A stretch of DNA of 64,000 nt from Candidatus Poriferihabitaceae bacterium. GTDB lineage: Bacteria > Pseudomonadota > Gammaproteobacteria > Arenicellales > Poriferihabitantaceae. Below the pieces are notes generated by a model. The model had not been told where the DNA came from, did no database searches, and saw only the letters and a list, made by a program, of their open reading frames with translations. Where the stretch lies: positions 2,253,900-2,317,899 of the forward strand of contig OZ245025.1 in the NCBI GenBank assembly GCA_965223465.1. The letters run 5' to 3'. Below, in pieces: positions 1 to 13,032 of the stretch (position 1 is the stretch's first letter; the number at the start of each line of letters is the position of its first letter). A program made the position numbers and the translations under genes.

Positions 1-2165
1 TAAGCATTGTTGCCAATCACCAGCGCGTAGAATTTGCCAAATTTTATTTTCGGGGTCGTCAATTTGCCCCCGCCGGTCAATGCCAGACGACCTGTTGTGG
101 TGGGTTCAATCACCAATGCGGTCTTACTAGATCTGCCTTGCTCGTCGACAGCTTCTATTTCTACGGTTTGGGCGGTGTCTGAAATCTCTACGGTGGTTAA
201 AAACAATCCATTGGTATCCAGTTGTTCGGTTTTACCGTTAACTTTAAACTGGCTTATGGTCTTGTTGGGATAGACTGCTCCCACGATATTCACCACCGAG
301 CCTGCACCCACTACTGCTTTTTTAATCCCGTCTGACGCATCTAATTTGGGCCATCGCAAGGCGATGACCGGCCCGTCCTTGGGTACCATTTTATCGATCT
401 GGTGATTGGCTTGGTCGCGTTCGCGCTTGAGCTGTTCAAGACTTGCTTTTAGTTTTTCATTATTGCTTTCTTCCTGTTCAAGCAATTCTTGTTTGGCCTG
501 CAACGTCGCCTCCAATTGCTCAAAGCTTTCTTTTTTGGGCAATGCGGCAATGCTCGCTTTTAATGAATCTATAGTTGCGTATGCCGTTTGAATTTCTACG
601 TTTTTAGTCTCCACAGATTGATTAATATTTTGTAGTTTTTGGCTGGCCTCCGCGAGTTGCGCCTCCAATCCTTTTACATAAGCCGAATTATCAGCATTAC
701 TTTTACTCGCGTCGTTTAATCGATCATTGAGCATTTTGACATTGCCCTGTTGCTTGCTTATTTCAATTTCGAGTAATTGCAGTTGGTTCTGATAGTATTT
801 TTCCCTTGCTTGTAAGGTATCTTTGACCTTCGCCAGTTGATCGGCGGGCTCCAATTGGGCGCTTTGATCCTTAAGGGCAAGTAATTCCTTTTCCAAAAGC
901 TGAATTTGCTGCTCTTGACGAACCGTAAGCACCGCCCAATCTTCAGCGACCTGCCGGGCATGCTCAAGATCATATTTATATGCGCTGATGTCGGCTGTAT
1001 TGTCTTGATCGGCCCCAACCAACTTGGCTTTCAATTCCTTGACCAAATCTTGTTGTGCCGTATATTGCTTTGTCATCTTCGCCAAATCTTGACTCAAAGC
1101 CTCCTTTTCCTTGGTGAGTTGTTTCTTAACCAACTTAAGTTGCTTTTCCGGCGATTTGTTTTCGATTGAAGCTTGCAGCTTTGCGAGCTTCGTTTTTAGT
1201 GCTTCGGTCGCTTTTTCCTTTTTTCGGGCCTGACGTTGTTGTGCCTTTAACGTTTTTTGTGCCGCTTTTAGTTCATCCGCGATAAACGTGTTGGTCGACT
1301 CACCCGTCCGCGCGATTTCAAGTTCAGACCTTAATGCAGCCATCATTAGCTTATGCGAGTCCAGTGCTTTGCGCGCTTCTGCTAGCTCGGTTTCCATTTT
1401 TAAGGTATCGGGTCTACCCTTTGGCGGCGCCCCACTTTTCGATTCTTTTAGCGCTTGCTCTTGTTGCGCAACATCTGCCTTGAGCTTTTGTATATTTTGT
1501 TTTGACTGACCCAGGCGGCCTTGTAGCCGGGTTAATTTGGCAGATAATTCTGCCGAGGTTTGTTTCTCCTGGCTGAGCGCCTGACGTAAAGATTGTATCT
1601 CCTGTGTGTCTTCCAGTCGGGCTTTTTCAAATACGGATGCGTATTCGATTTGTTCACCGTCCAACCCAGATGCCTTGCGATACAGGTTCATCGCTTTGGC
1701 CAAATCTTTTTCCACCCCCATGCCACCTTCATACATTCTGCCCAGACTCATCAATGCCGGACCATAATTCTGCGCAGCAGATTTTTTATACCACACCAGC
1801 GCAAGATCAACATCAGGTGGCTGGCCCATCCCCTTTTCGTAAATCTCTCCTACATAATACTGCGCCTCAGCCTCGCCCAGGGTGGCAGACTCCAGCCAAA
1901 CTTTCAGCGCACTGGCAACCGTCGCACGGTCATATTTAACGTAGTCACCGCCACGAATCTCACACTCATCCGCTGACGCTTTGATAGGGCGCTTTTTCGA
2001 AACATAGGCTCGTCGGGTACCCAACTGGCTTACCTTGCCTGGCAACATGCAGTCCACGATCAGCGCATTGTCGGCAATGAGTTTTTTAGCTGCGGCTAAC
2101 TGGCTTATCGCCACCAAAGAACTGGTGAGAAAGCACACCAGCAATGATTTGATCGATTTATTCAT
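1..2165 (-). CDS. Secreted Sel1-repeat / long coiled-coil / caspase-like (peptidase C14) protein; partial, C-terminal part lies outside the window
   Basis: Missing from the ORF track because it runs off the left edge. The reverse-strand ATG at 2165-2163 (MNKSIKSLLVCFLTSSLVAISQLAAA, signal-like) stays open down to base 3; I checked the frame at several points. Sel1-type repeats are present (AQYYVGEIYEKGMG, LVWYKKSAAQNYGPALMSLGRMYEGGMG, AMNLYRKA). They are followed by ~400 aa of Q/E/K/L-rich coiled coil. The last residues, FYALVIGNNA, match the typical first strand of a caspase fold. Confidence 0.7.
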   Translation of the reverse strand, partial: MNKSIKSLLVCFLTSSLVAISQLAAAKKLIADNALIVDCMLPGKVSQLGTRRAYVSKKRPIKASADECEIRGGDYVKYDRATVASALKVWLESATLGEAEAQYYVGEIYEKGMGQPPDVDLALVWYKKSAAQNYGPALMSLGRMYEGGMGVEKDLAKAMNLYRKASGLDGEQIEYASVFEKARLEDTQEIQSLRQALSQEKQTSAELSAKLTRLQGRLGQSKQNIQKLKADVAQQEQALKESKSGAPPKGRPDTLKMETELAEARKALDSHKLMMAALRSELEIARTGESTNTFIADELKAAQKTLKAQQRQARKKEKATEALKTKLAKLQASIENKSPEKQLKLVKKQLTKEKEALSQDLAKMTKQYTAQQDLVKELKAKLVGADQDNTADISAYKYDLEHARQVAEDWAVLTVRQEQQIQLLEKELLALKDQSAQLEPADQLAKVKDTLQAREKYYQNQLQLLEIEISKQQGNVKMLNDRLNDASKSNADNSAYVKGLEAQLAEASQKLQNINQSVETKNVEIQTAYATIDSLKASIAALPKKESFEQLEATLQAKQELLEQEESNNEKLKASLEQLKRERDQANHQIDKMVPKDGPVIALRWPKLDASDGIKKAVVGAGSVVNIVGAVYPNKTISQFKVNGKTEQLDTNGLFLTTVEISDTAQTVEIEAVDEQGRSSKTALVIEPTTTGRLALTGGGKLTTPKIKFGKFYALVIGNNA

Positions 2166-2204
2166 CCTCCTTCTCCTGTATGTTATCGGGTTTGCACTAT
2201 CGTC

Positions 2205-2963
2205 TTAGCAGTCGACTCGCTTTACATCTGCGATACCATAAGTCTGTAATTGATTGTCCGGGCGGCCACAGTAAGTCACTGTGCCGACACCTCGCATCAC
2301 ACCCGCCAAAACACCTTTGCCGCTAAACGCCAGGTCAACGCTACTGGTACCATCTATATCAAGTTGGGCCAGTTCTACCTGGCTGTTGGAAAAATCAAGT
2401 GTCGAAACGCCACTTGCGATATGGTGTAATGTTGCGATTTTATTGTTATCACCATGCAAATTAGAGACACCATACAAAGCGAGTGATAACGCGGTTTGGT
2501 TAAAGTTTTCAACACGAGCAGTCTGGACACTATTGAGATCAAGCGCTGATATTGAGGGCATACCAAGCATTACTTTAAACCTGGCATTTTGATAACTACC
2601 ATTCTCTAGCGAAATAATGAGCATATTGCCTTGTTGCTCGACCCTGACCTTTTCCAGCAAATTGCTATCGGCTTGTACCTGTACGGAATACTCATCCGCC
2701 CGCTTAAGCAGCAATTCAATATTCTGCGCAGTGACCGCATCAAACCCTTTAAAATCCAATTCCTTTACGACGATATCGCCATTGCCTTTAAGCGTTGAAC
2801 CTTGATCCGTGCAGGTATTGGTACACACGCCATTGATACAATTGCTGGTGCAGTTTAGTCCACTAGCAGATTGCACTATCGTGCCTGCATTCACGGCGGA
2901 ACAAGACAACAACAAGGCCGTACCAACCACTATCGTATTAAACCCAATGCTTAAATCAGACAT
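2205..2963 (-). CDS. GIN-domain / DUF2807-like secreted protein (putative adhesin-head-like beta structure)
   Basis: 252 aa with an N-terminal hydrophobic signal. GNGDIVVKELDFKGFDAV followed by repeated short strand motifs (VSNLHG, VSTLDFS, SSVDLAFSG, GVGTVTY) is the DUF2807 pattern. There is only a 1-nt gap to the upstream gene. Confidence 0.55.
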   Translation of the reverse strand: MSDLSIGFNTIVVGTALLLSCSAVNAGTIVQSASGLNCTSNCINGVCTNTCTDQGSTLKGNGDIVVKELDFKGFDAVTAQNIELLLKRADEYSVQVQADSNLLEKVRVEQQGNMLIISLENGSYQNARFKVMLGMPSISALDLNSVQTARVENFNQTALSLALYGVSNLHGDNNKIATLHHIASGVSTLDFSNSQVELAQLDIDGTSSVDLAFSGKGVLAGVMRGVGTVTYCGRPDNQLQTYGIADVKRVDC

Positions 2964-2964
2964 C

Positions 2965-3498
2965 TCATTGCGATAAGGTAGTAATGGCTACCCGTCTGTT
3001 CGCCGCGGCGTAAGGATTGCTCTGATCCAACAATTCAGTTTCTCCTTTGCCAATCAACTTAAGATTTGTCGGGTCTACTGCAAAATTACTATGCAGGTAC
3101 TGCCCGACAGACTTCGCACGACGTTGGGATAAATTAAGATTATATTGATCGCTTCCTGATGCGTCCGTATGACCCTCAAGCTTGAAAGAAAGCCCAGCAA
3201 GTTCATTTGAATTTAACGCTGCACCAAGTGGTTCCAGTTGCGCAATAGCCTGCTGCGTTAGCTCAGCCGAATTAAGCTTAAACTGGATCTCCATAGAGAT
3301 TGATTTTTCCGATACGGGTGCCTGCGCTTGCGATTGATTCAAACGAATACCGCGTGTTAGCACCTGGGGTTGCAGTGCGCTGATGATCTCATCTTTATTC
3401 ATCACCCTGGTGCCAACATGGGTGGTTGAATCCGCCCACGCAATGCCATAACCCAAACAGCCGCTGATCAATAGTGTTGTTAATAGTTTTGTATTCAT
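2965..3498 (-). CDS. OmpA-like peptidoglycan-binding protein
   Basis: 177 aa with a signal/lipobox-like N-terminus (LLISGCLG). The C-terminal motif is LEGHTDASGSDQYNLNLSQRRAKSV...NRRVAI. Confidence 0.8.
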   Translation of the reverse strand: MNTKLLTTLLISGCLGYGIAWADSTTHVGTRVMNKDEIISALQPQVLTRGIRLNQSQAQAPVSEKSISMEIQFKLNSAELTQQAIAQLEPLGAALNSNELAGLSFKLEGHTDASGSDQYNLNLSQRRAKSVGQYLHSNFAVDPTNLKLIGKGETELLDQSNPYAAANRRVAITTLSQ

Positions 3499-3501
3499 GG
3501 T

Positions 3502-3825
3502 TTAGTCCTCTATAAAAATGCAAAATGTTGCACCAAAATCATAAAAGTAAAGCTTTTGCTTGCCCTTGTATAAAACCCTCGCCTGACTTTTATCTCCTAG
3601 TCTCCAGTTGTTTTCGACCACAATTAGGTCGCCGTCCTGCCAGCATCTAAGCTGGTCTTTTTTATAATTGACCGCGCTTTTTTCAACGCTGGGTCTGTTG
3701 ATCGTTGTACTAATTCCATCGCTGTTAACCGGTGGCGCTGACTTATGTTGTGTGACTTCAGCGTACCCTACACTGGCAAGCAGTAATATGATGGCCGGTA
3801 CGAATATAAGTTTTTTAATCTTCAT
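3502..3825 (-). CDS. Small secreted protein, unknown function
   Basis: 107 aa with a clear signal peptide (MKIKKLIFVPAIILLLASVGYA). Tightly packed inside the operon, with 2-3 nt gaps on both sides. Confidence 0.5.
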   Translation of the reverse strand: MKIKKLIFVPAIILLLASVGYAEVTQHKSAPPVNSDGISTTINRPSVEKSAVNYKKDQLRCWQDGDLIVVENNWRLGDKSQARVLYKGKQKLYFYDFGATFCIFIED

Positions 3826-3827
3826 GG

Positions 3828-5447
3828 CTACTGCACCTTGATTGTATAAGTTGTTTTTGCGTATCTACCCGTCGTCGCCTTCTCATACTCCTTAAAAATT
3901 TCTTCTGCTGAGGCGATGGGTAAAGAATCAAAGTCTGCCAGCCGTAACTTGGCAGGCAAATCCGCCTGGATTTTTTCGGTGGTGAGTACGCAATGTATTT
4001 TTTCACCATCTTTATCTGAGGTAATGGAATACGCGGGCGAGTCCGGTAGGGTAATCAGGCCTTTATTAGATATGAACCCGTCAGCAGAAAAGCGGTTGGG
4101 AAAAATTCGCGCATAGACATCTCCGCTTTCCATATAACAATCAACATAACCGTTGGTATTGCTTTTTACCGTCAGGAAAATATCTTCACCCGCGACATAG
4201 CTTTCTTTGACACTAGACGAAGCCAGCGTTATCGACAGCTTTTCGGGGGTTGCCGGCTTACCCGCTAAGGCCAGCTGCTGCTCCTCGCTGCGCTTGGAAA
4301 AAATCGGTTCAGGCTTAGCGTTAGCTTTGGCGACCTGCTTTTTTTTCTGCACGACGTACGCCAGTTTTGAACTATCGATGCTGTTAGGTGAGTCATTTAA
4401 AAACGCCCGGTAAAAAGCCAGATCAACCCCACCATTGGGCTCCAGACCCAAGCGCTCTTTATATTTAATAACCGCAGCCTGATACTCTGGGGTAATGCTT
4501 GTATCCAGAGGGCCCGCATAGTAACCCCTGAGATACAAATGCACTTTAGTCTCACTGTGAATCGTTCCGGATTGCGTGAGCTGATAGTGCCAATCAGACA
4601 GCTCTCGTTCGATAGTTGGATGATCAGCGTCTAATCCAAGGCATTTCCAGTAGGGTAGCTTGGCCATTTTTCCTGCCAGTTCGATGGCAGATAATTCAAT
4701 TAGTGCCCGCAGCGCCTGCGCCTGCCCGTCACTTCTCCCGGTAGAAATACTATAATTAATACCGGTTTTCTGAATACCTGCATCAAAACCTCCACCCTTA
4801 CCAGTTTTATAGATCACCACCGCATTTCGGGTAGTAACACCCGGGATCACGGCCATGTTGTGCGTGGTAATCACACTAAGATCCAGCCCCAGAATCGAGC
4901 CAGCGTTACTGGCAGACAGACCAAAGCCACCACCAAATTTTTTGCCATCTGAGGTACCGCCAGTTTGTAAGCCAGCGTCAGCCTGTTTGCGTAATAAATC
5001 CTTATCCAGCTGAGATACCGCACCAATGATGTCATAAGGCGGGATATTCTGATAGGCGCCTTTTTGTTCCGCTGAGTTTAAAAACGCAACCAGGTTACCC
5101 GAGTCATTCCCGAATGCGATGACCTGAATGGCCTGGCTCCGACGCGTCATGTCAGAAATTGCTGATATCAGCATTTCGCGTGTACCCGCTTTGACTTTAT
5201 CGGTTTTATCCTTGATATCTTCGAGTAGCATTACATAGCTATTGGGTGCAAACCCGAAGGCCACAAACATATTGTCCATGCAACGCAGGCCTTCGGCGAA
5301 ATCAGTAATATTTCGCTCCGGTAGCTCACGTGGGCCTTTTCGTAGCGCCTGTATTTCTTCTTCAGTTTCCTGGATAACCTTGGTGACACAGCCATTCAAA
5401 ACCAAAGTGGCTGCGATTATGATTGATCCCATTATTTTAGTTTTCAT
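3828..5447 (-). CDS. CsgG/HfaB-like lipoprotein fused to a peptidoglycan-binding-like module and a DUF4384-like C-terminal domain
   Basis: 539 aa with a lipobox (TLVLNGC). The N-terminal ~280 aa follow the CsgG-family layout (EDIKDKTDKVKAGTREMLISAISDM, PYDIIGAVSQLD, ILGLDLSVITTHNMAVIPG, AQALRALIELSAIELAGKM). The PG_binding_1-like segment is GPLDTSITPEYQAAVIKYKERLGLEPNGGVD. The DUF4384-like segment is YVAGEDIFLTVKSNTNGYVDCYMESGDVYARIFPN. Confidence 0.6.
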   Translation of the reverse strand: MKTKIMGSIIIAATLVLNGCVTKVIQETEEEIQALRKGPRELPERNITDFAEGLRCMDNMFVAFGFAPNSYVMLLEDIKDKTDKVKAGTREMLISAISDMTRRSQAIQVIAFGNDSGNLVAFLNSAEQKGAYQNIPPYDIIGAVSQLDKDLLRKQADAGLQTGGTSDGKKFGGGFGLSASNAGSILGLDLSVITTHNMAVIPGVTTRNAVVIYKTGKGGGFDAGIQKTGINYSISTGRSDGQAQALRALIELSAIELAGKMAKLPYWKCLGLDADHPTIERELSDWHYQLTQSGTIHSETKVHLYLRGYYAGPLDTSITPEYQAAVIKYKERLGLEPNGGVDLAFYRAFLNDSPNSIDSSKLAYVVQKKKQVAKANAKPEPIFSKRSEEQQLALAGKPATPEKLSITLASSSVKESYVAGEDIFLTVKSNTNGYVDCYMESGDVYARIFPNRFSADGFISNKGLITLPDSPAYSITSDKDGEKIHCVLTTEKIQADLPAKLRLADFDSLPIASAEEIFKEYEKATTGRYAKTTYTIKVQ

Positions 5448-5462
5448 GATATTGCTCCTTTT

Positions 5463-5807
5463 CTATTTACAATTATTACCCGCGTTTATGACGTCGCCGG
5501 TGATAATGACATCGACTTGCTGGGGTGTACCAAACGGTTTGTCGTTGGTGACATTGCCAATATCCACCACGCCACATTTTTCCTCTTCAAACCCGGATGA
5601 GACATCCCCTTCAACATCATCGGGGATGGACTTATCCATTAATTCGTTTTGCAGCACACGCCCTTTTGCCTTAAATCGAGAAACTTTCGCGTTTTGTGCA
5701 TCATCAAAATCCAACTCGCCTGCATAAGCGGTTTGTGATAATCCGATTACCAGGCCCAAGCACAAGCTTGCGAGGTAATACGCCATATTTCCTTGTTGTG
5801 TTTTCAT
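5463..5807 (-). CDS. Small secreted acidic protein, unknown function (accessory-factor candidate)
   Basis: 114 aa with a signal peptide ending AYAGE. Lies between the repeat-protein genes and the CsgG-like gene. Confidence 0.45.
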   Translation of the reverse strand: MKTQQGNMAYYLASLCLGLVIGLSQTAYAGELDFDDAQNAKVSRFKAKGRVLQNELMDKSIPDDVEGDVSSGFEEEKCGVVDIGNVTNDKPFGTPQQVDVIITGDVINAGNNCK

Positions 5808-5812
5808 ATGAT

Positions 5813-6703
5813 CTACTCCGCTGATCCAATACTAATTTCATTAATCGTCCCAGCGCCGGAGGCACCTTGTATGATGTTTCCGACACGTACATTGGCCGCA
5901 TGACCACCCGTACCAATGTTGCTCGCTGAGCCAATACTCAGCATATTCTTACTGCCTACTCCTGAAACCCCTTGTACGACCTCACCGACTTGCACGTTCA
6001 CGTTCATTTCTCCAACCGCAGCATTTCGGGCTGAACCAATATCAATCAAATTCTGGTTGAATACCCCGCCTGCTGATTGAGAAATGCTACCTACACTGGT
6101 ATCGCTACTGAAAACACCAACTCCAGAATTTCGTACCGCTCCCACATTCGCCTCATTGGTATTGGATAGCCCGGAATTGGACTGGGTGATATCACCAACT
6201 GTTGCATTTGACTGAAAACTATCGACCGTTGAGTTGCGGATTGCACCGATATTCAACTCATTGCGCCCCGAGATACCTGTGTGGGTTTGCAGCACAGTGC
6301 CTACCGACGTGTTTGACTCTACCGCGCCCGTCGTTGCATTTTGGACTGCGCCTATATTTAGCTCATTGGTGTTAAATAAGCCCTGGTTAGATTGAATGAT
6401 AGTGGTTGCCGACATATTGGTATTGAGCGCGCCTGTTGCAGAATTGTTGACCCCGCCCAGGTTAGCTTGGTTTTGGTTCGAGAGCCCCGTGGTGGTTTGC
6501 AATATGCTACCGACCGAGGTGCTAGTGTTCAGCGCACCCGTCTCAGAACCGACAACCGCGCCTGCATTTACATTATTTTGCTGATTCAGACCCAAATCGT
6601 TCTGAATGATCGAGCCGGTAACGGTATTGCTCGACTGGGCAAATAACAGACTACTACAAAACAGTAATTGTCCTATTGCCGATATTGATATTAGTCGCTT
6701 CAT
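5813..6703 (-). CDS. Secreted Q/N/G/S-rich tandem-repeat protein (about eight degenerate ~35-aa repeats), curlin-like composition
   Basis: 296 aa with a signal peptide (LLFCSSLLFAQS). The repeats follow the pattern G-x-I/V-x-Q-x3-G-L/I-x-N-x-N-E/x-x-N-I/V-G-A-V-x-N-x3-G, for example GTVLQTHTGISGRNELNIGAIRNSTVDSFQSNATV. Confidence 0.7.
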   Translation of the reverse strand: MKRLISISAIGQLLFCSSLLFAQSSNTVTGSIIQNDLGLNQQNNVNAGAVVGSETGALNTSTSVGSILQTTTGLSNQNQANLGGVNNSATGALNTNMSATTIIQSNQGLFNTNELNIGAVQNATTGAVESNTSVGTVLQTHTGISGRNELNIGAIRNSTVDSFQSNATVGDITQSNSGLSNTNEANVGAVRNSGVGVFSSDTSVGSISQSAGGVFNQNLIDIGSARNAAVGEMNVNVQVGEVVQGVSGVGSKNMLSIGSASNIGTGGHAANVRVGNIIQGASGAGTINEISIGSAE

Positions 6704-6776
6704 GTTTACTTGAATGTGGGATGCCCGGAAAAGGCCATTTACGCCATTACGTATCGCGAAAATGGCCTTGATCCAT

Positions 6777-7931
6777 TTACCTCACTGAACCAACAGCTGC
6801 ATCATTCTCAGCCGTCAAGCCCAACGCGCTTTGGTTAATCGCGCCGGAAGCAGTGGTGTTATTCAGATTGCCATTCACATTTGAATTAATGATGGAACCT
6901 ACCGCTGCCTTGTTACTTGCAGTCAAGCCCAACGCACTTTGGTTAATCGCGCCGGAAGCAGTGGTATTACGCACATCACCGTTAACACTTGAATTTACTA
7001 CCGAGCCTACCGCAGCTTCATTGTTAGCTGTTAAGCCCAATGCGCTTTGATTGATTACACCAGAGGCCGTGGTATTCTGAACATCACCATTAACGTTTGA
7101 GTCCACCACTGAACCTACTCTCGCCTTGTTATCGGCAGTTAAGCCCAATGCGCTCTGATTAATCGCACCAGAAACAGTCGTATTTCGCACGTCACCGTTA
7201 ATGCTTGAATTAGCCACCGAGCCGACGTCCGCCGTATTATCAGCTGTCAAGCCTAGAGCACTTTGGTTGATCGTGTTGGACACAGTGGCGTTCTGAACAT
7301 CACCGTTGACGCTTGAATCTACTACCGAACCGACCGCTGCCTTGTTGCTGGCCGTCAAGCCCAGCGCACTTTGGTTGATGGCACCGGACACAGTGTTGTT
7401 TTGAACATCACCATTAATGCGTGATCTAACAACTGAACCTACTGCAGCTTCGTTGTTTGCAGTCAATCCCAGTGCACTTTGGTTTATTACACCAGAAGCA
7501 GTGTTGTTCTGAACATCACCATTGACACGTGAATCAACCACTGAACCGACCGCAGCCTTGTTGCTGGCAGTCAGACCTACAGCGCTTTGATTAATGGCAC
7601 CAGAGGCAGTGTTATTCTGAACATCACCATTGATGGTTGAACCCACCACTGAACCAACCGCAGCTTCGTTTTCTGCAGTCAAGCCCAGCGCACTTTGATT
7701 AATCACGCCGGAAGCGGTGTTGTTTTGCACATCACCGTTTACAGTTGAACCCACCACTGAACCAACCGCAGCCTTATTGCTGGCGGTGAGGCCCACAGCG
7801 CTTTGATTAATGGCGCCAGAGACAGTATTGTTCTGTACGTCACCGTTTATAGTTGACTGAGCAGAAGCTGTACCCGCAACCATCGTAGGTAAGCTCGCTG
7901 CCAGCAGAATAGTTAGTAATTTACGTTTCAT
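6777..7931 (-). CDS. Secreted tandem-repeat protein, 10 x 36 aa (NGDVQNNTASGAINQSALGLTASNKAAVGSVVxSxV), putative beta-solenoid / amyloid-like fibre subunit
   Basis: 384 aa. After the signal peptide (LAASLPTMVAGTASAQS) the whole mature protein is ten head-to-tail 36-aa repeats. It is the first gene of the operon. Confidence 0.75.
   Translation of the reverse strand: MKRKLLTILLAASLPTMVAGTASAQSTINGDVQNNTVSGAINQSAVGLTASNKAAVGSVVGSTVNGDVQNNTASGVINQSALGLTAENEAAVGSVVGSTINGDVQNNTASGAINQSAVGLTASNKAAVGSVVDSRVNGDVQNNTASGVINQSALGLTANNEAAVGSVVRSRINGDVQNNTVSGAINQSALGLTASNKAAVGSVVDSSVNGDVQNATVSNTINQSALGLTADNTADVGSVANSSINGDVRNTTVSGAINQSALGLTADNKARVGSVVDSNVNGDVQNTTASGVINQSALGLTANNEAAVGSVVNSSVNGDVRNTTASGAINQSALGLTASNKAAVGSIINSNVNGNLNNTTASGAINQSALGLTAENDAAVGSVR
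6780..7859 (-). repeat. Ten in-frame tandem 108-bp repeats inside the 6777..7931 gene
   Basis: Direct DNA recurrence at a 108-bp period. For example gtcaagcccaacgc[g/a]ctttggttaatcgcgccggaagcagtggt occurs at ~6815 and again at ~6923, with related copies through ~7800. Confidence 0.85.
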
Positions 7932-8528
7932 GATTATTTCCTATATAAAATTTAAGTTTCGTTGCATTATTTTTAGCAACATTGTTTATTTACAAATTTC
8001 CGTTTACTTCAATTAAGTCCTTTACATTGATACCTCCTAAATTCCTTTTCGAGGTTCGCATTAGACGCGATTGTTGATTTCTACCGCGTGACAAAAATCA
8101 CACTTTGGAAATTGTCTGAAAATTTTTACAGAAGATTTTGCAGTATGGTTCGTCCAAGGCAGGTATCCGAACAGTGTGGTGATTTTTATGTGACTACCAG
8201 ACTGCCGAATGGTGGTTTGTTGTGCGAGTCGCTAAGTGCACCGGAGCTTAGTCAGCCATAAAACAAAACCATAGTTTGAATTCACAGGATCATTAATCCT
8301 TATCCGGTAGGTTTGAGTCGGTACCAGTGGTGTTCTATAATGCATGCGATGGGCATTGCGTAGACCTGATACCAGCCGCGCAAGGTTTTTAAAACTAATA
8401 TAACCCGAGCGCCTATCATTAATATTCACTGGTCACGCTACTTTGAGTCGGCGTCCTAAAATATCGTTGGTAGTCAATCGAACGAACCAATCCACAAGAG
8501 CATTACTGTCGAGGAGGAGGTGTTTTAG

Positions 8529-9089
8529 ATGTTTCAAGTACGTATTCACGGTCGGGGTGGACAAGGCGTTGTATCTGCCGCTGAAATGCTGTCAATTGCT
8601 GCCTTTGAACAGGGCATGTTCTCCCAGGCGTTCCCGAGTTTTGGTTCCGAGCGAATGGGCGCGCCCGTTGTATCCTACGTGCGTATGGACGATGACGTCA
8701 TCGAGCTACGCGAACCAGTGTTTGAACCTGATCTGCTGGTGATTCAAGATCCAACCCTGTTTCACGCTGTCGATGTTTTCGAAGGACTGAAAGCAGATGG
8801 CTTCGTGTTGATCAATTCGAGAAGACAGCCTGAGGAATTGGGCATCCAGGAAGCAACCGATAAATTACCATCCGGTCACGTCGCCACAATTCCTGCTACC
8901 CATCTGGCGATGCAGTATCTCAAACGGTCCACGCCTAATACAGTTTTACTGGGGGCCTTTACCGCGATGAGTGAACTGCTCAAAATAGAATCAGTCGAAA
9001 AAGCCATCCTGGATAAATTTTCTGGTGCAGTAGGTGAAAGTAATGTCGCGGCTGCGCGTGCAGCCAAACAAGCCACTGTCATCTGTTGA
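8529..9089 (+). CDS. porG: 2-oxoacid:acceptor oxidoreductase, gamma subunit (PorG-like)
   Basis: N-terminus MFQVRIHGRGGQGVVSAAEMLSIAAF is the family signature. A strong RBS (ggaggagg) lies upstream. Confidence 0.85.
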   Translation: MFQVRIHGRGGQGVVSAAEMLSIAAFEQGMFSQAFPSFGSERMGAPVVSYVRMDDDVIELREPVFEPDLLVIQDPTLFHAVDVFEGLKADGFVLINSRRQPEELGIQEATDKLPSGHVATIPATHLAMQYLKRSTPNTVLLGAFTAMSELLKIESVEKAILDKFSGAVGESNVAAARAAKQATVIC

Positions 9090-9100
9090 GGAAATAAGCA

Positions 9101-10354
9101 ATGCGAAAACAAATCGAAGGTTCCCAGGCAGTCGCAGAAGCCGTTGCCCTGTGCCGGCCTGAAGTCATCTCTGCCTACCCGATCACGCCGCAGACTCATA
9201 TCGTGGAGGACCTGGGTGTGATGGTTAAATCTGGTGAATTGTCACCCTGCGAATTCATGCTGGTGGAATCAGAATTTGGTGCCTTGAGCGCTTGCATCGG
9301 TTCTTCTTCAGCAGGGGCACGAAGTTATACCGCCACCTCAAGCCAGGGCATGTTGTTTATGATGGAAGCGGTTTACAATGCTTCCGGGATCGGATTGCCA
9401 ATTGTGATGACGGTGGGTAACCGCGCTATTGGTGCACCAATCAATATCTGGAATGACTGGAGTGACTCCATGTCAGCACGAGATGCCGGCTGGATTCAGC
9501 TGTTTGTGGAGGACAATCAACAGGCGGTGGATGTGCATATCCAGGCGTTTAAGCTTGCAGAAGAACTTTCCCTGCCGGTCATGGTGTGTATGGACGGGTT
9601 TATCCTGACCCATGCTTATGAACAGGTCGACATACCCTCCCAAGAGCAGGTTGACGGGTTCTTACCTCCTTTTCAGCCACGCCAGGTTCTGGACCCTGCT
9701 GCGCCGCTTTCCATCGGCGCGATGGTTGGCCCCGAAGCGTTTACCGAAGTGCGGTTTCTGGCGCACTTCAAACAACTTCAGGCATTGGAACTGATTCCGC
9801 AACATTCTCGAAACTACACCGATATCATCGGGCGAGACTCAGGTGGGCTGATCAAGTCATTTGAAGCAGAAGGCGCTGAAACCGTGGTCATTACCATGGG
9901 CTCCGTGATCGGCACTTTCAAACACGTTCTGGCTGAGATGCGTGAACACGGGCACTCCGTTGGGGCGATTACGATTCGGTCTTACCGGCCATTCCCGAGA
10001 GATGCCCTGCGCGCGGCCTTAAAAGATGCCAAACGCGTTATTGTATTTGAAAAATGTCTGGCAGTTGGCATGGGTGGCGTTGTTGCCATGAATGTTCGAA
10101 CCGCGCTTGAAGGTTTTTCCTTACCGGTTTATTCAGTGATTGGGGGCTTGGGTGGCCGACCAATTACCCAAGAAAACTTACGCCGCATGCTGAATAAGGG
10201 CGTGAATGACGATCTCGAAGAGCCCCATTTTCATGATGTGCAGATGGATGTCGTCAACAAAGAGCTGGAACGAGAACGCACTGAACGACGCAGTGGCGGG
10301 CGCGCTGAAAACATACTGCGCGAGATGGGTATTGCGGCCACCGGTAAAAACTAA
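9101..10354 (+). CDS. porA: 2-oxoacid:acceptor oxidoreductase, alpha subunit (PorA-like)
   Basis: 417 aa; GSQAVAEAVALCRPEVISAYPITPQTHIVE is a typical alpha-subunit start. Confidence 0.85.
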   Translation: MRKQIEGSQAVAEAVALCRPEVISAYPITPQTHIVEDLGVMVKSGELSPCEFMLVESEFGALSACIGSSSAGARSYTATSSQGMLFMMEAVYNASGIGLPIVMTVGNRAIGAPINIWNDWSDSMSARDAGWIQLFVEDNQQAVDVHIQAFKLAEELSLPVMVCMDGFILTHAYEQVDIPSQEQVDGFLPPFQPRQVLDPAAPLSIGAMVGPEAFTEVRFLAHFKQLQALELIPQHSRNYTDIIGRDSGGLIKSFEAEGAETVVITMGSVIGTFKHVLAEMREHGHSVGAITIRSYRPFPRDALRAALKDAKRVIVFEKCLAVGMGGVVAMNVRTALEGFSLPVYSVIGGLGGRPITQENLRRMLNKGVNDDLEEPHFHDVQMDVVNKELERERTERRSGGRAENILREMGIAATGKN

Positions 10355-10369
10355 GCAGGAGAGACCAAC

Positions 10370-11386
10370 ATGAAAAATATTCCCGAATCCCAGCAAAAAG
10401 TAAAATTTTATCAAACCGGTACTTTTACCGTAGGTAATCGATTGCTCGACTCAGCTCAGCGTACCGTGCAGGCCACTATTGATCGGTCTAACTCGCTCGA
10501 TTCCGGCCATCGTGCTTGTCAGGGTTGTGGTGAAGCCCTGGGTGCTCGCTACGCGCTCGACGCAGCCATGCGCGCAACTGATCGTCAATTGATTGCCGCT
10601 AATGCAACTGGATGCCTGGAAGTATTCACTACGCCGTATCCGGAAACCGCCTGGTCCATCCCCTGGGTGCATTCACTGTTTGGTAATGCCGCGGCGGTCG
10701 GTGCAGGTATAGCCGCAGCAATGAAGGTCAAGGGACGCCAGGATGTACGAGTGATCGCACAGGGTGGAGATGGTGGTACCACTGATATTGGCATGGGGTG
10801 TTTGTCAGGTATGTTCGATCGTAATGATGACGTTTTGTATATCTGCTATAACAACCAGGGCTATATGAACACCGGTGTACAGCGCTCCAGTGCTACCCCG
10901 GGCGCCGCCCGTACTGCCACCACCCAGCCAGTCGGAAACCAACCCGGCAATGATTTTAATACCGGAAAAAGTGTCCCCTTGATCGCCATGGCGCACAATA
11001 TACCGTACGTTGCAACAGCCGGAGTTCATGATCTGCATGATCTGGAATATAAGATTACCAAAGCGATGGAGTTTAGAGGGTCTCGCTATGTTGAGATTTT
11101 TGTGCCCTGCCCACTGGGCTGGGGATCGACCCCAGGTGATACCATCAAGCTTTCCAGGCTAGCGGCTGAAACCGGGTTTTTTCCGCTATTTGAAAGTGAA
11201 AATGGTGAAATAACCGCGGTAACCAAAATCCGTCGACTACAGCCTGTAGATGAATTTTTGCGTTTGCAGCGTCGTTTCGCGCATGTATTCAAACCTGAAA
11301 ATGCCGACCAGCTAGAACATTTGCGCGCGATTGCGCAGCGAAATATCAGGCGCTTTGATCTGGTCGATGAGGAGGTACCAGCATGA
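10370..11386 (+). CDS. porB: 2-oxoacid:acceptor oxidoreductase, beta subunit (TPP- and Fe-S-binding, PorB-like)
   Basis: 338 aa with the CQGCGE cysteine motif and the GDGGTTDIGMGCLSG TPP-binding motif. Confidence 0.85.
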   Translation: MKNIPESQQKVKFYQTGTFTVGNRLLDSAQRTVQATIDRSNSLDSGHRACQGCGEALGARYALDAAMRATDRQLIAANATGCLEVFTTPYPETAWSIPWVHSLFGNAAAVGAGIAAAMKVKGRQDVRVIAQGGDGGTTDIGMGCLSGMFDRNDDVLYICYNNQGYMNTGVQRSSATPGAARTATTQPVGNQPGNDFNTGKSVPLIAMAHNIPYVATAGVHDLHDLEYKITKAMEFRGSRYVEIFVPCPLGWGSTPGDTIKLSRLAAETGFFPLFESENGEITAVTKIRRLQPVDEFLRLQRRFAHVFKPENADQLEHLRAIAQRNIRRFDLVDEEVPA

Positions 11387-13032
11387 GCAACGATGCGCCA
11401 ATTCAGGATAAACCATTTGCGATCACGCTGGATGTCGGCACTAGCCGACTGAACAAAACCGGCACTTGGCGTACCGAAAAGCCAGTTTACCTCGACCGTT
11501 TACCACCCTGTAATCATGCCTGCCCAGCAGGTGAAAATATCCAGGCCTGGTTGGCGTTGGCAGAGGAAGGGGATTATCAAAGTGCCTGGCGAGAAATTGT
11601 CAAAAACAATCCACTGCCTGCGATCATGGGTCGAGCCTGCTACCACCCTTGTGAGTCGGCGTGCAATAGACGTGAGCTGGATGAAGCAGTTGGCATCCAT
11701 GCAGTTGAGCGCTTTTTGGGAGACCAGGCGATCAAACATGACTGGCAGTTTGATAAACCGTCTAGCCACAGTGGTAAAAAGATTCTGGTGATTGGTGCGG
11801 GACCGAGTGGTCTTTCCGCGGCTTACCACCTGGCCACCCTTGGACACCAGGTCGAAATTCATGAGGCTGGCCCTGTAGCCGGGGGGATGATGCGGTTTGG
11901 AATTCCGCGGTATCGCCTGCCGAGGGATACGGTTGACGCCGAGATCCAGCGTATAGTCAATCTCGGGATAACATTAAAACTAAACACGCCGGTAGATGAT
12001 ATCCAGTCAGCCATCAAACAAGGCGGATTTGACGCTTGTTTTGTGGCCATTGGCGCGCATTTGGCCAATCGGGTTGATATACCTGCCCCGGATGCGACAC
12101 GTATTCTTGATGCGGTTAAGGTCTTACATGATATGGAAACGGATGAAGCTCCACCGCAGCTGGGACGCAAAGTCATCGTTTATGGCGGCGGCAATACCGC
12201 CGTGGATATGGCGCGTACCGCAAAACGTCTGGGTGCCAGTGAGGCAGTAATTGTCTACCGACGCACACGCGAACAAATGCCAGCACATGATTTTGAAATG
12301 GATGAAGCCATCGAAGAAGGCGTGGTAGTAAACTGGTTAAGGACCATCACCCAGGCGGATGAAAAAGAATTTACCATTGAGAAAATGGAGCTGGATGAAA
12401 ACGGTAAACCGCAGCCGACCGGAGAATACGAAACGATTGAGGCGGATACACTAGTGCTCGCATTAGGGCAAAACGTGGATACCCAAATTCTGGATAATTT
12501 GCCTGATGTCAGTATTAAAAACGGTGTGGTTGAAGTAGACAGCAATATGATGACAGGCCACAAAGGCGTGTTTGCCGGTGGCGATATGGTACCTTCTGAA
12601 AGAACCGTCACGGTGGCGGTAGGCCATGGAAAAAAGGCGGCCAGGCATATTGACGCTTATTTAAAGGGCGAATCCTATATTAAGCCCAAAGCACCCGAGC
12701 TGGTTGATTTTGATATGTTGAATACCTGGTATTACACCGATGCGGAAGCGGCGGTACAACCGATGCTAGATAACATTCGTCGTCAATCAACTTTCGATGA
12801 AGTCTTAAGTGGTTTGGATAAAAACAACGCATTGTACGAAGCGCGCCGCTGCCTTTCTTGCGGTAACTGTTTTGAGTGTGACAATTGTTATGGCGTCTGT
12901 CCGGATAATGCTGTGATTAAAAAGGGCCCCGGCAAACGTTTTGAGTTCAAGTATGATTACTGTAAAGGATGCGCAATGTGCGCCACAGAATGCCCCTGTG
13001 GGGCGATAAAGATGGTTCCGGAGGAGATATAA
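11383..13032 (+). CDS. GltD/SudA-like NAD(P)H flavoprotein fused to a C-terminal 2x[4Fe-4S] ferredoxin domain
   Basis: 549 aa. The N-terminal Fe-S region (CNHACPAGENIQ...CYHPCESACNR) and the dinucleotide fold (KILVIGAGPSGLSAAYHL; VIVYGGGNTAVDMA) match glutamate-synthase small-subunit relatives. The C-terminus carries CLSCGNCFECDNCYGVCP and CKGCAMCATECPCGAI. The ATGA overlap with porB suggests translational coupling. Confidence 0.8.
   Translation: MSNDAPIQDKPFAITLDVGTSRLNKTGTWRTEKPVYLDRLPPCNHACPAGENIQAWLALAEEGDYQSAWREIVKNNPLPAIMGRACYHPCESACNRRELDEAVGIHAVERFLGDQAIKHDWQFDKPSSHSGKKILVIGAGPSGLSAAYHLATLGHQVEIHEAGPVAGGMMRFGIPRYRLPRDTVDAEIQRIVNLGITLKLNTPVDDIQSAIKQGGFDACFVAIGAHLANRVDIPAPDATRILDAVKVLHDMETDEAPPQLGRKVIVYGGGNTAVDMARTAKRLGASEAVIVYRRTREQMPAHDFEMDEAIEEGVVVNWLRTITQADEKEFTIEKMELDENGKPQPTGEYETIEADTLVLALGQNVDTQILDNLPDVSIKNGVVEVDSNMMTGHKGVFAGGDMVPSERTVTVAVGHGKKAARHIDAYLKGESYIKPKAPELVDFDMLNTWYYTDAEAAVQPMLDNIRRQSTFDEVLSGLDKNNALYEARRCLSCGNCFECDNCYGVCPDNAVIKKGPGKRFEFKYDYCKGCAMCATECPCGAIKMVPEEI

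Follow-up and report, generated by a model that had tools for sequence, protein, structure and literature searches.

The question raised by the first 7931 positions of a 64,000-nucleotide stretch of DNA from a Candidatus Poriferihabitaceae bacterium (contig OZ245025.1, positions 2,253,900 to 2,317,899 of the forward strand; this whole stretch is called the window below) is what is made by an eight-gene cluster in which two secreted tandem-repeat proteins, RepA and RepB, are encoded next to a lipoprotein resembling CsgG of the curli system. An earlier annotation, made from the sequence without database searches and referred to here as the original prediction, had proposed a non-canonical curli-like fibre system. 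In the present analysis the operon is read, with a probability of roughly 0.55, as a type VIII-like (curli-like) pathway that exports and assembles beta-solenoid fibre subunits of a new class. Export of the curli-like kind is already known, while the subunit family, the rung geometry and the accessory set would be new.

An open reading frame (ORF) scan recovered all eight ORFs on the minus strand, separated in transcription order by 73, 5, 15, 2, 3, 1 and 39 nt, a range of 1 to 73 nt that agrees with the co-directional, closely spaced layout of the original prediction. Judged by sequence comparison these are real genes and not chance ORFs, because their homologues are found in the same gene order across dozens of genomes. 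All eight products carry a signal-like sequence at the N-terminus, as had been proposed; for the OmpA-like and GIN proteins it is ambiguous whether a lipobox or a signal peptidase I site is used, and GIN orthologues show AMA/Q and AFA/Q sites.

The core of the system is an outer-membrane lipoprotein of 539 residues (3828..5447, minus strand, as are all genes of the operon) with the lipobox LNGC, whose Cys20 is shared by 90% or more of 112 homologues. Its AlphaFold model (AF2) has a predicted local distance difference test score (pLDDT) of 83 and a predicted template modelling score (pTM) of 0.78. When this model was compared to the PDB using Foldseek, the 21 best matches were CsgG without exception, with E-values between 2e-6 and 3e-4 and a probability of 1.0, led by entries 4uv2, 6l7a and 4uv3 (E 2e-6 to 3e-5). 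They have 217-289 aligned columns (about 240-290 in the best), 11-15% identity and a template modelling score (TM-score) of 0.46-0.53 on the target. The pore-less relatives PelC, HpaA and GNA1162 ranked under CsgG, with E-values from 3e-4 to 2e-2. The CsgG-fold domain covers approximately residues 40-270 (4638..5330), as delimited by Foldseek, the model and the register of the hhalign alignment given below. Its model shows the alpha/beta core together with two long hairpin inserts (about residues 150-186 and 214-238, with long strands of the model spanning roughly 138-194 and 199-236), equivalent to those that form the barrel in CsgG, and in combination with the N-terminal lipidated cysteine these are the elements of the CsgG fold. 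Both inserts are amphipathic, with hydropathy alternating residue by residue in the columns of the family alignment.

C-terminal to the CsgG-like domain, two further domains are fused. The first is a helical PG_binding_1-like domain (residues 303-347; 4407..4541), assigned from Pfam and from a PDB profile search; in the window protein its Pfam match stays under the cut-off (E 0.0035), 68 of the 90 family members examined have one (best E 1e-10), and the lipoprotein profile matches the peptidoglycan-binding domains of SleB/OpcA in the PDB. The second is a DUF4384 (PF14326) beta-sandwich domain (residues 417-491; 3975..4199), which scores 29.5 bits against a Pfam cut-off of 27 (E 8e-7) and is matched by 90/90 family members. 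As regards the fold and a probable remote homology, 'CsgG-like' is the right term for this protein, and an oligomeric outer-membrane pore may be proposed. The predicted CsgG/HfaB-like lipoprotein was therefore borne out at the level of the fold (Foldseek E 2e-6); as membership of the Pfam family it was not.

The two repeat proteins are encoded at the start of the operon. RepA (6777..7931; 384 residues) consists of a 24-residue signal peptide (ASA/QST) followed by exactly 10 units of 36 residues, and has neither caps nor extra domains. Tandem Repeats Finder (TRF) reported a period of 108 nt with 9.5 copies (score 721) and a period of 216 nt (score 896). C, F, H, M, P, W and Y are all absent from the mature protein, of which Asn makes up 15%. 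RepB (5813..6703; 296 residues) has eight degenerate units of 35 residues with the core [QN]-x3-G-x9-G-x-[VIA] and ends in ISIGSAE; its phmmer matches, down to E 2e-78, are repeat proteins adjoining the lipoprotein gene in other genomes. The TRF results and unit listing thus agree with the 10 x 36-residue and degenerate repeat arrays of the original prediction. Across clades the unit measures 31-38 residues with the common core [QN]-x3-G-x9-[GSNA]-x-[VIA], the proteins span 82-1649 residues, and one to five paralogues are found per locus. The proposed analogy to a major and a minor subunit is not supported by the comparison, given this variable number of repeat genes and the closest relatives, which show only a RepB-like gene in the available sequence.

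The repeat differs from the curlin unit, as had been suspected: the units are 35-36 residues long, no Rep protein matched Curlin_rpt (PF07012) in Pfam at E<=1, and a PDB search with the repeat profile, described below, gave no chain. Neither Pfam nor NCBIfam revealed a recognisable export domain in the Rep proteins. As expected by the original prediction, the AF2 model of RepA from its single sequence is an uninterrupted all-beta solenoid from residue 22 to the C-terminus, with 3-4 strands per unit (pLDDT 77, pTM 0.76). Among the structural neighbours of this model, a CsgA of Pontibacter stands at rank 4, with a non-significant E-value of 0.59.

Further evidence is given by the ends of these proteins. 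In essentially every genuine Rep the chain ends two to four residues past the conserved Gly in the [IV]-G-[SN]-[VA] strand, and the final residue is usually charged. Measured from the predicted signal-peptidase site, the mature length deviates by no more than 0.14 from an integer number of repeats in 26 out of 27 proteins with periods of 31-39 residues (binomial p 8e-14), and mature RepA, with 360 residues, amounts to 10.0 units exactly. If the tail of one RepA were placed before the head of another, the junction of TAENDAAVGSVR with QSTINGDVQNNTVS would have the same length as the internal boundary TASNKAAVGSVVGSTVNGDVQNNTAS and be alike at approximately 20 of 26 positions. Stacking of open-ended solenoids is a principle described for curli (PMC10192328), and uncapped proteins with whole-repeat lengths and in-phase ends are what would be expected of head-to-tail stacking into a continuous solenoid. 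Capped globular adhesins, an outcome that would have spoken against the original prediction, are thus not what was found: Rep is uncapped, RepA models as a continuous solenoid, and the lengths and ends are in phase.

Several observations on the Rep genes may be added. The units of RepA fall into two alternating subtypes, SGAINQSAVGLTASNKAA and SGVINQSALGLTAxNEAA; unit identity is 0.78 at a lag of 72 residues and 0.74 at 36, and together with the higher TRF score at 216 this suggests that the array grew by duplication of two-unit blocks. The longest Rep, of 1649 residues, is found in an Arenicella locus (L001, 4631-9580, plus strand; also in L009 and L010) and combines two repeat dialects in one subunit, with GGxxNVAAGQ-type units in the N-terminal two-thirds and a lysine-rich SVxRSxIxGxxxxNxxxxGxVxNKxKK unit in the C-terminal third. 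At the other extreme, in some Zoogloeaceae and others a single long Rep is replaced by four or five tandem paralogues of about 89-103 residues, each with two repeat units behind a signal peptide (L021, 7278-9035; L052, 6696-9354; both plus strand). Long ORFs on the strand opposite to the repeats (window 6392-7050, plus strand, e.g. 6392-6646 and 6853-7050) mirror the repeats periodically and recur in every locus; they should be regarded as artefacts of repeat composition, not as genes. Finally, when 5.8 billion proteins were searched by means of a word index, neither RepA nor RepB gave any match, and even the query sequence was missed; local phmmer reached E 1e-87. The most likely cause is that the word index, or a composition filter, does not cope with such repeats. 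Low-complexity repeat subunits of this type are thus likely to escape such indexes systematically, which suggests that the systems to which they belong are under-detected. Rep homologues were consequently gathered from the loci around lipoprotein relatives and analysed locally.

Relatives of the lipoprotein occur in 237 GTDB species. The word-indexed search gave more than 175 homologues, for which the sources have no other names than 'DUF4384 domain-containing protein' or 'hypothetical protein', and an exhaustive search gave 505 clusters at 50% identity (E<=1e-30). The nearest relatives belong to uncultured Gammaproteobacteria, Acidiferrobacterales and Arenicellales, and the system as such is present in Gamma- and Betaproteobacteria. 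Cultured carriers are found in Variovorax (V. rhizosphaerae KACC 18900, locus L051), Azohydromonas (A. lata NBRC 102462, L073) and Noviherbaspirillum (N. autotrophicum TSA66, L071). For the comparison of gene content 81 loci were used, 80 around lipoprotein relatives and one obtained by exact-protein look-up, and their ORFs were searched with the window proteins and then with iterated profiles. Of these loci, 49 extend for 6 kb or more to either side of the lipoprotein gene (well-flanked loci); S1 was found in 49, S2 in 45, the OmpA-like protein in 41, the caspase in 36 (often as two genes) and GIN in 29. Repeat proteins were detected in 34 of the 49 by an automatic periodicity test and by eye in 8 more among the other 15, hence in at least 42. 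Gene order is preserved from Arenicellales through Variovorax: an Arenicella locus with 43% lipoprotein identity encodes Rep, the giant Rep (1649 residues), S1, lipoprotein, S2, OmpA and a Sel1-coiled-coil-caspase protein, and the order in cultured Variovorax rhizosphaerae is Rep, S1, lipoprotein, S2, GIN, OmpA, caspase. The gene set is therefore strongly co-conserved in related genomes, on which the original prediction depended; of the three outcomes that it had named as refuting, none was observed, and its interpretation is supported. Its judgement of 'previously undescribed' also stands within the literature consulted: neither a description of this gene set nor a link between DUF4384 and CsgG was found in the full texts searched, the coverage of which is incomplete, so that this is absence of evidence only.

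Directly on either side of the lipoprotein gene lie those of the two small secreted proteins, S1 (5463..5807; 114 residues) upstream in 81/81 loci and S2 (3502..3825; 107 residues) downstream in 75/81. Each has two conserved cysteines; in S2 these are part of an invariant C-W-Q-x-G-x-L and a second invariant Cys. Neither the single sequences nor the families (41 members for S1, 33 for S2) matched a Pfam family, including CsgE/F/C/H, and in searches of their profiles against all PDB chains (E<=10) only unrelated proteins and no Csg-named chain appeared. The claim that no CsgE/F/C look-alikes are present is supported accordingly, and S1 and S2 are new protein families. The C-terminal 36 residues of S1 are bracketed by the two conserved cysteines (C-G-x3-I-G-N-V, I-T-G-D-V-I-N and the second Cys), and this part, CGVVDIGNV...ITGDVINAGNNC, resembles a junction between two Rep units, in which AAVGSV closes the first and INGDVQNNT opens the second.

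A comparable segment is present in the GIN/DUF2807 beta-helix protein (2205..2963; 252 residues), which was assigned by Pfam (DUF2807, PF10988; 62 bits against a cut-off of 24.2, E 8e-17). The repeat-unit hidden Markov model matches its N-terminus at residues 27-66 (2766..2885), GTIVQSASGLNCTSNCINGVCTNTCTDQGSTLKGNGDIVV, with 11.2 bits and an E-value of 5e-4 to 2e-3 among the window ORFs. This segment is a one-unit copy with I-x-Q-S-A-x-G-L, the G-x9-G spacing and N-G-D-[IV], to which four cysteines are added; the corresponding motifs of GIN orthologues are TTI[IV]QSNxGxGCSxVCINGNC in the gamma clade and GNINQRNIGV in the Oleiphilus/Cellvibrio clade. In the search for a CsgB-like nucleator, these Cys-bracketed Rep-like motifs of S1 (median 1.2 bits) and GIN (11.2 bits) were what was found, both with low scores.

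Two partners remain. The OmpA/Pal-like peptidoglycan-binding protein (2965..3498; 177 residues), a possible lipoprotein (LISGC), matches PF00691 with 66.5 bits against a cut-off of 27.2 (E 3e-18), and in NCBIfam it matches YiaD/PA1041/YfiB/Pal-like domains, all under the equivalog cut-offs. The last gene (1..2165) leaves the window at base 1, and the 721 codons present are the 5' part of a protein with Sel1 repeats (E 2e-15), a coiled coil of about 400 residues, an immunoglobulin-like domain and then a caspase domain. Sel1 was confirmed within the window by Pfam; the predicted caspase domain lies beyond the window edge except for its first 13 residues (FGKFYALVIGNNA), and its assignment was made via orthologues (E 1e-91 to 1e-104), which carry Peptidase_C14 with the catalytic His and Cys. 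This dyad is kept in 77/77 caspase homologues encoded by the loci. The family names given by the original prediction to OmpA, DUF2807, Sel1 and DUF4384 all returned as Pfam matches in window products. The OmpA, GIN and caspase partners, which it called foreign to known curli, Fap or Hfa loci, do set the operon apart from curli, but they are not foreign add-ons; their recurrence at the 49 well-flanked loci (41, 29 and 36, respectively) marks them as conserved members of the system and not passengers. DUF4384 and Sel1 are recurrent accessory or fusion domains of orthocaspases (PMC8283722), which suggests that the caspase of the operon interacts with the DUF4384 domain of the lipoprotein. In many Burkholderiales loci two caspase genes flank the core, a short one of approximately 280-290 residues and a longer one of 400-990.

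Taken together, these data can be arranged into a possible mechanism. The Rep proteins would cross the inner membrane by Sec, remain unfolded in the periplasm and leave the cell through the oligomeric pore that the CsgG-fold domain of the lipoprotein is presumed to form. Outside the cell they would fold into rungs of 31-38 residues, and whole-rung, uncapped subunits could join head-to-tail as a continuous solenoid filament, to which an amyloid character might be ascribed. The peptidoglycan-binding domain of the lipoprotein, together with the OmpA-like protein, may hold the export machinery at the cell wall. S1 and GIN, with their Cys-bracketed copies of rung parts, could act as template, anchor or cap at the fibre end, comparable to CsgB/CsgF, and the secreted caspase-like protease, possibly docked on DUF4384, might serve in subunit processing or quality control, comparable to FapD. 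Among these accessory roles, tethering to the cell wall is proposed with most confidence, templating by S1 and GIN with less and processing by the caspase with least. A more specific proposal, to which somewhat less than even odds are given, is that the operon represents a third, so far unrecognised type VIII-like branch, widespread in Gamma- and Betaproteobacteria and distinct from curli and Hfa, in which a CsgG-fold pore with inbuilt peptidoglycan-binding and DUF4384 domains would export whole-rung subunits into an endless solenoid, disulfide-locked mimics of a single rung in S1 and GIN would start or end its growth, and a periplasmic caspase would have a structural part.

Compared with curli, the operon shares a CsgG-fold lipoprotein with both hairpins beside Sec-dependent tandem-repeat proteins rich in N, Q, G, S and A, modelled here as open-ended beta-solenoids of widely variable repeat number, and small secreted accessory proteins flanking the channel gene. 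It differs in that its lipoprotein is outside the Pfam CsgG family by sequence and carries the fused PG_binding_1 and DUF4384 domains; in that its repeat has 31-38 residues with approximately three strands per rung, whereas that of curlin is a strand-turn-strand of 19-23 residues; and in that CsgE/F/C/B/D homologues are missing and OmpA-like, GIN and caspase proteins are added. In common with Fap, it has repeat-containing secreted subunits in one or more paralogues and an operon-encoded periplasmic cysteine protease (FapD there, the C14 caspase here). A published account (PMC12392863) describes for FapC an N/Q/G/A-rich repeat of about 30-40 residues forming one multi-strand layer each, like that of Rep. 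The exporter, however, is a CsgG-fold lipoprotein and not a FapF-type barrel, the protease is of the C14 and not the C39 type, the Rep units are contiguous without long linkers, and none of the eight products has a Fap-named match in Pfam or NCBIfam (E<=1). The holdfast anchor of Caulobacter (HfaA/HfaB/HfaD) includes HfaB, a member of the CsgG/HfaB family of Pfam; with this CsgG-type lipoprotein at work outside canonical curli, it sets a precedent for a diversification of type VIII-like export. The operon differs from the anchor in lacking sequence-level PF03783 membership and holdfast genes, and in its substrates and accessory set. With PelC, HpaA and GNA1162 the lipoprotein shares the alpha/beta core fold (CsgG/TolB-N-like) and its lipoprotein nature; the published structures of these three proteins are not known to have the two long hairpin inserts. 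The likeness to orthocaspases consists in Peptidase_C14 with its His/Cys dyad, accompanied by Sel1 within the protein and by DUF4384 within the operon, the difference in the signal peptide of a protease located in an envelope/secretion operon and in DUF4384 being on the lipoprotein and not on the protease.

A number of results weigh against a curli-like export and assembly pathway. The likening to curli fibre secretion is made here from genes and predicted structures, and that of the lipoprotein to CsgG comes from the fold search, because all sequence routes stayed below significance. The 539-residue protein has no match to PF03783 in Pfam at E<=1, nor one in NCBIfam, and by the gathering score of PF03783 it is not a member of the CsgG family; phmmer with the protein and a search with the 112-sequence family profile (E<=10) gave no CsgG chain in the PDB; and hhalign of the family against E. 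coli CsgG (sequence matched to 4uv3) reached an E-value of 0.056 only. The TM-scores are moderate and come from a monomer model, by which a pore cannot be shown, and PelC and HpaA share the fold as non-channels. No homologues of CsgE/F/C/B were found among the operon products by Pfam and PDB profile searches. A 61-unit repeat profile matched no PDB chain at E<=10, in a library including the CsgA chain 8c50, and RepB alone gave nothing meaningful in the PDB. The RepA model was built from a single sequence at pLDDT 77, and its Foldseek neighbours, beta-helices and solenoids, are all non-significant (best E 0.26). The repeat profile on the IGNV motif of S1 is consistent with a Rep-like copy but weak (median 1.2 bits; shuffled S1 gives -2.9 and S2 gives -4.1), the Rep-like segment is absent from the GIN orthologues of Burkholderiales, and GIN itself is absent from 20/49 well-flanked loci. 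With regard to CsgG homology, sequence models fail, while three observations agree with each other, namely the fold match, sub-threshold PF03783 matches in 16/90 family members (best E 5e-4), and the register of the weak hhalign alignment, which is the one predicted by the fold (DIxGSISQ opposite MVEGSIIGY and LGLDLSV opposite IAVNLRVV).

Other explanations were weighed as well. Rep could be a non-polymerising beta-helical protein of the surface or periplasm (an adhesin, a matrix- or ice-binding protein), with the lipoprotein as a peptidoglycan-tethered CsgG/PelC-like scaffold instead of a pore, and Rep would then take another route or stay in the periplasm. The non-pore lipoproteins PelC, HpaA and GNA1162 do have the CsgG fold, CsgG sequence membership is wanting, PG-binding and DUF4384 domains are typical of periplasmic proteins, and the weak structural neighbours of RepA are ordinary beta-helix enzymes and adhesins. 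However, the lipoprotein has both barrel hairpin inserts, each of them amphipathic, and CsgG outscores the pore-less relatives. Rep proteins without capping or anchoring domains, of whole-repeat length, in phase at their ends and with a 20-fold range of lengths would moreover be unusual for globular beta-helix adhesins. Rep has no export domain in Pfam or NCBIfam, and the surroundings of the cluster lack any other conserved exporter; only in the Arenicella locus L001 does an autotransporter gene follow. A scaffold of this kind is consequently regarded as unlikely, though it is the strongest of the competitors.

Still less probable is an envelope module built around the secreted caspase, which would be its effector in stress sensing, programmed cell death or defence against phages, while DUF4384 and Sel1 would dock or sense and Rep would provide substrates, decoys or sensors. 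Such a module would account for the caspase genes with intact dyad in 36/49 loci, often two per locus, and for DUF4384 and Sel1 as known accessory domains of orthocaspases, and the caspase of L001 matches the generic 'caspase' model of PADLOC (E 2e-11). Nevertheless, all components carry export signals, which places the action of the protease outside the cytoplasm; the invariant core consists of S1-lipoprotein-S2 and Rep, the caspase being missing in 13/49 well-flanked loci and shifting in position; and the whole-repeat, in-phase design of the subunits would be left unexplained. Finally, a divergent member of a described amyloid system (curli csgBAC/DEFG, fapA-F of Pseudomonas or hfaABD of Caulobacter) would share the logic of repeat subunits encoded beside an outer-membrane exporter, small accessories and, as in Fap, a cysteine protease. 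By eye, Q-x3-G-x2-N also recalls Q-x-G-x-G-N of curlin and the NVAAG..NQQ motif of FapC. This is very improbable: in Pfam and NCBIfam (E<=1) no product has a Curlin_rpt, CsgE/F/C, Fap- or Hfa-named match, the unit of 31-38 residues contrasts with the approximately 19-23 of curlin, and the accessory set is different.

Two candidate identifications were tried and rejected. Kinship of the Rep repeat with curlin or FapC was rejected by the sequence searches of Pfam and the PDB, and the similarity at fold level is non-significant. A known anti-phage defence system was rejected as well, since PADLOC matched only generic OmpA/MotB, coiled-coil and caspase domains.

Few dedicated pathways for export of bacterial fibres or amyloids are known, e.g. 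curli and Fap, which serve as models for controlled amyloid assembly and biofilm matrix biology and in nanopore engineering (CsgG) and living materials. If the curli-like reading is true, a remote CsgG-fold channel system would broaden the range of type VIII-like secretion, and a first envelope or structural context would be given to bacterial caspases, DUF4384, DUF2807/GIN and two unnamed small-protein families; a periplasmic caspase would mean an extracytoplasmic, structural role for these proteases. The presence of the system in cultivable Variovorax and Azohydromonas makes it directly testable.

Upstream of RepA, the intergenic region 7932..8528 is shared with a divergent por operon. It contains an AGGAAA ribosome-binding site preceding RepA and a weak sigma-70-like site at 7995 to 7966 (minus strand), which is at chance level (10 matches found against 12.4 expected). 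Promoter and terminator scans revealed no internal site exceeding the shuffled-sequence controls, and regulatory claims are therefore not made. The divergent cluster (8529-13032, plus strand) comprises four genes of a 2-oxoacid:ferredoxin oxidoreductase (POR): POR gamma, a POR_N/PFOR_II alpha subunit, a thiamine pyrophosphate (TPP)-binding beta subunit and a 549-residue Pyr_redox_2/Fer4 protein resembling the small subunit of glutamate synthase. A cluster of this type suggests an anaerobic or microaerobic metabolism of the host. In Variovorax (L051, 13638-19428, plus strand), the cluster is followed directly by a second OmpA-type gene and a gene of 1107 residues, which by eye look like TssL and TssM/IcmF of type VI secretion.

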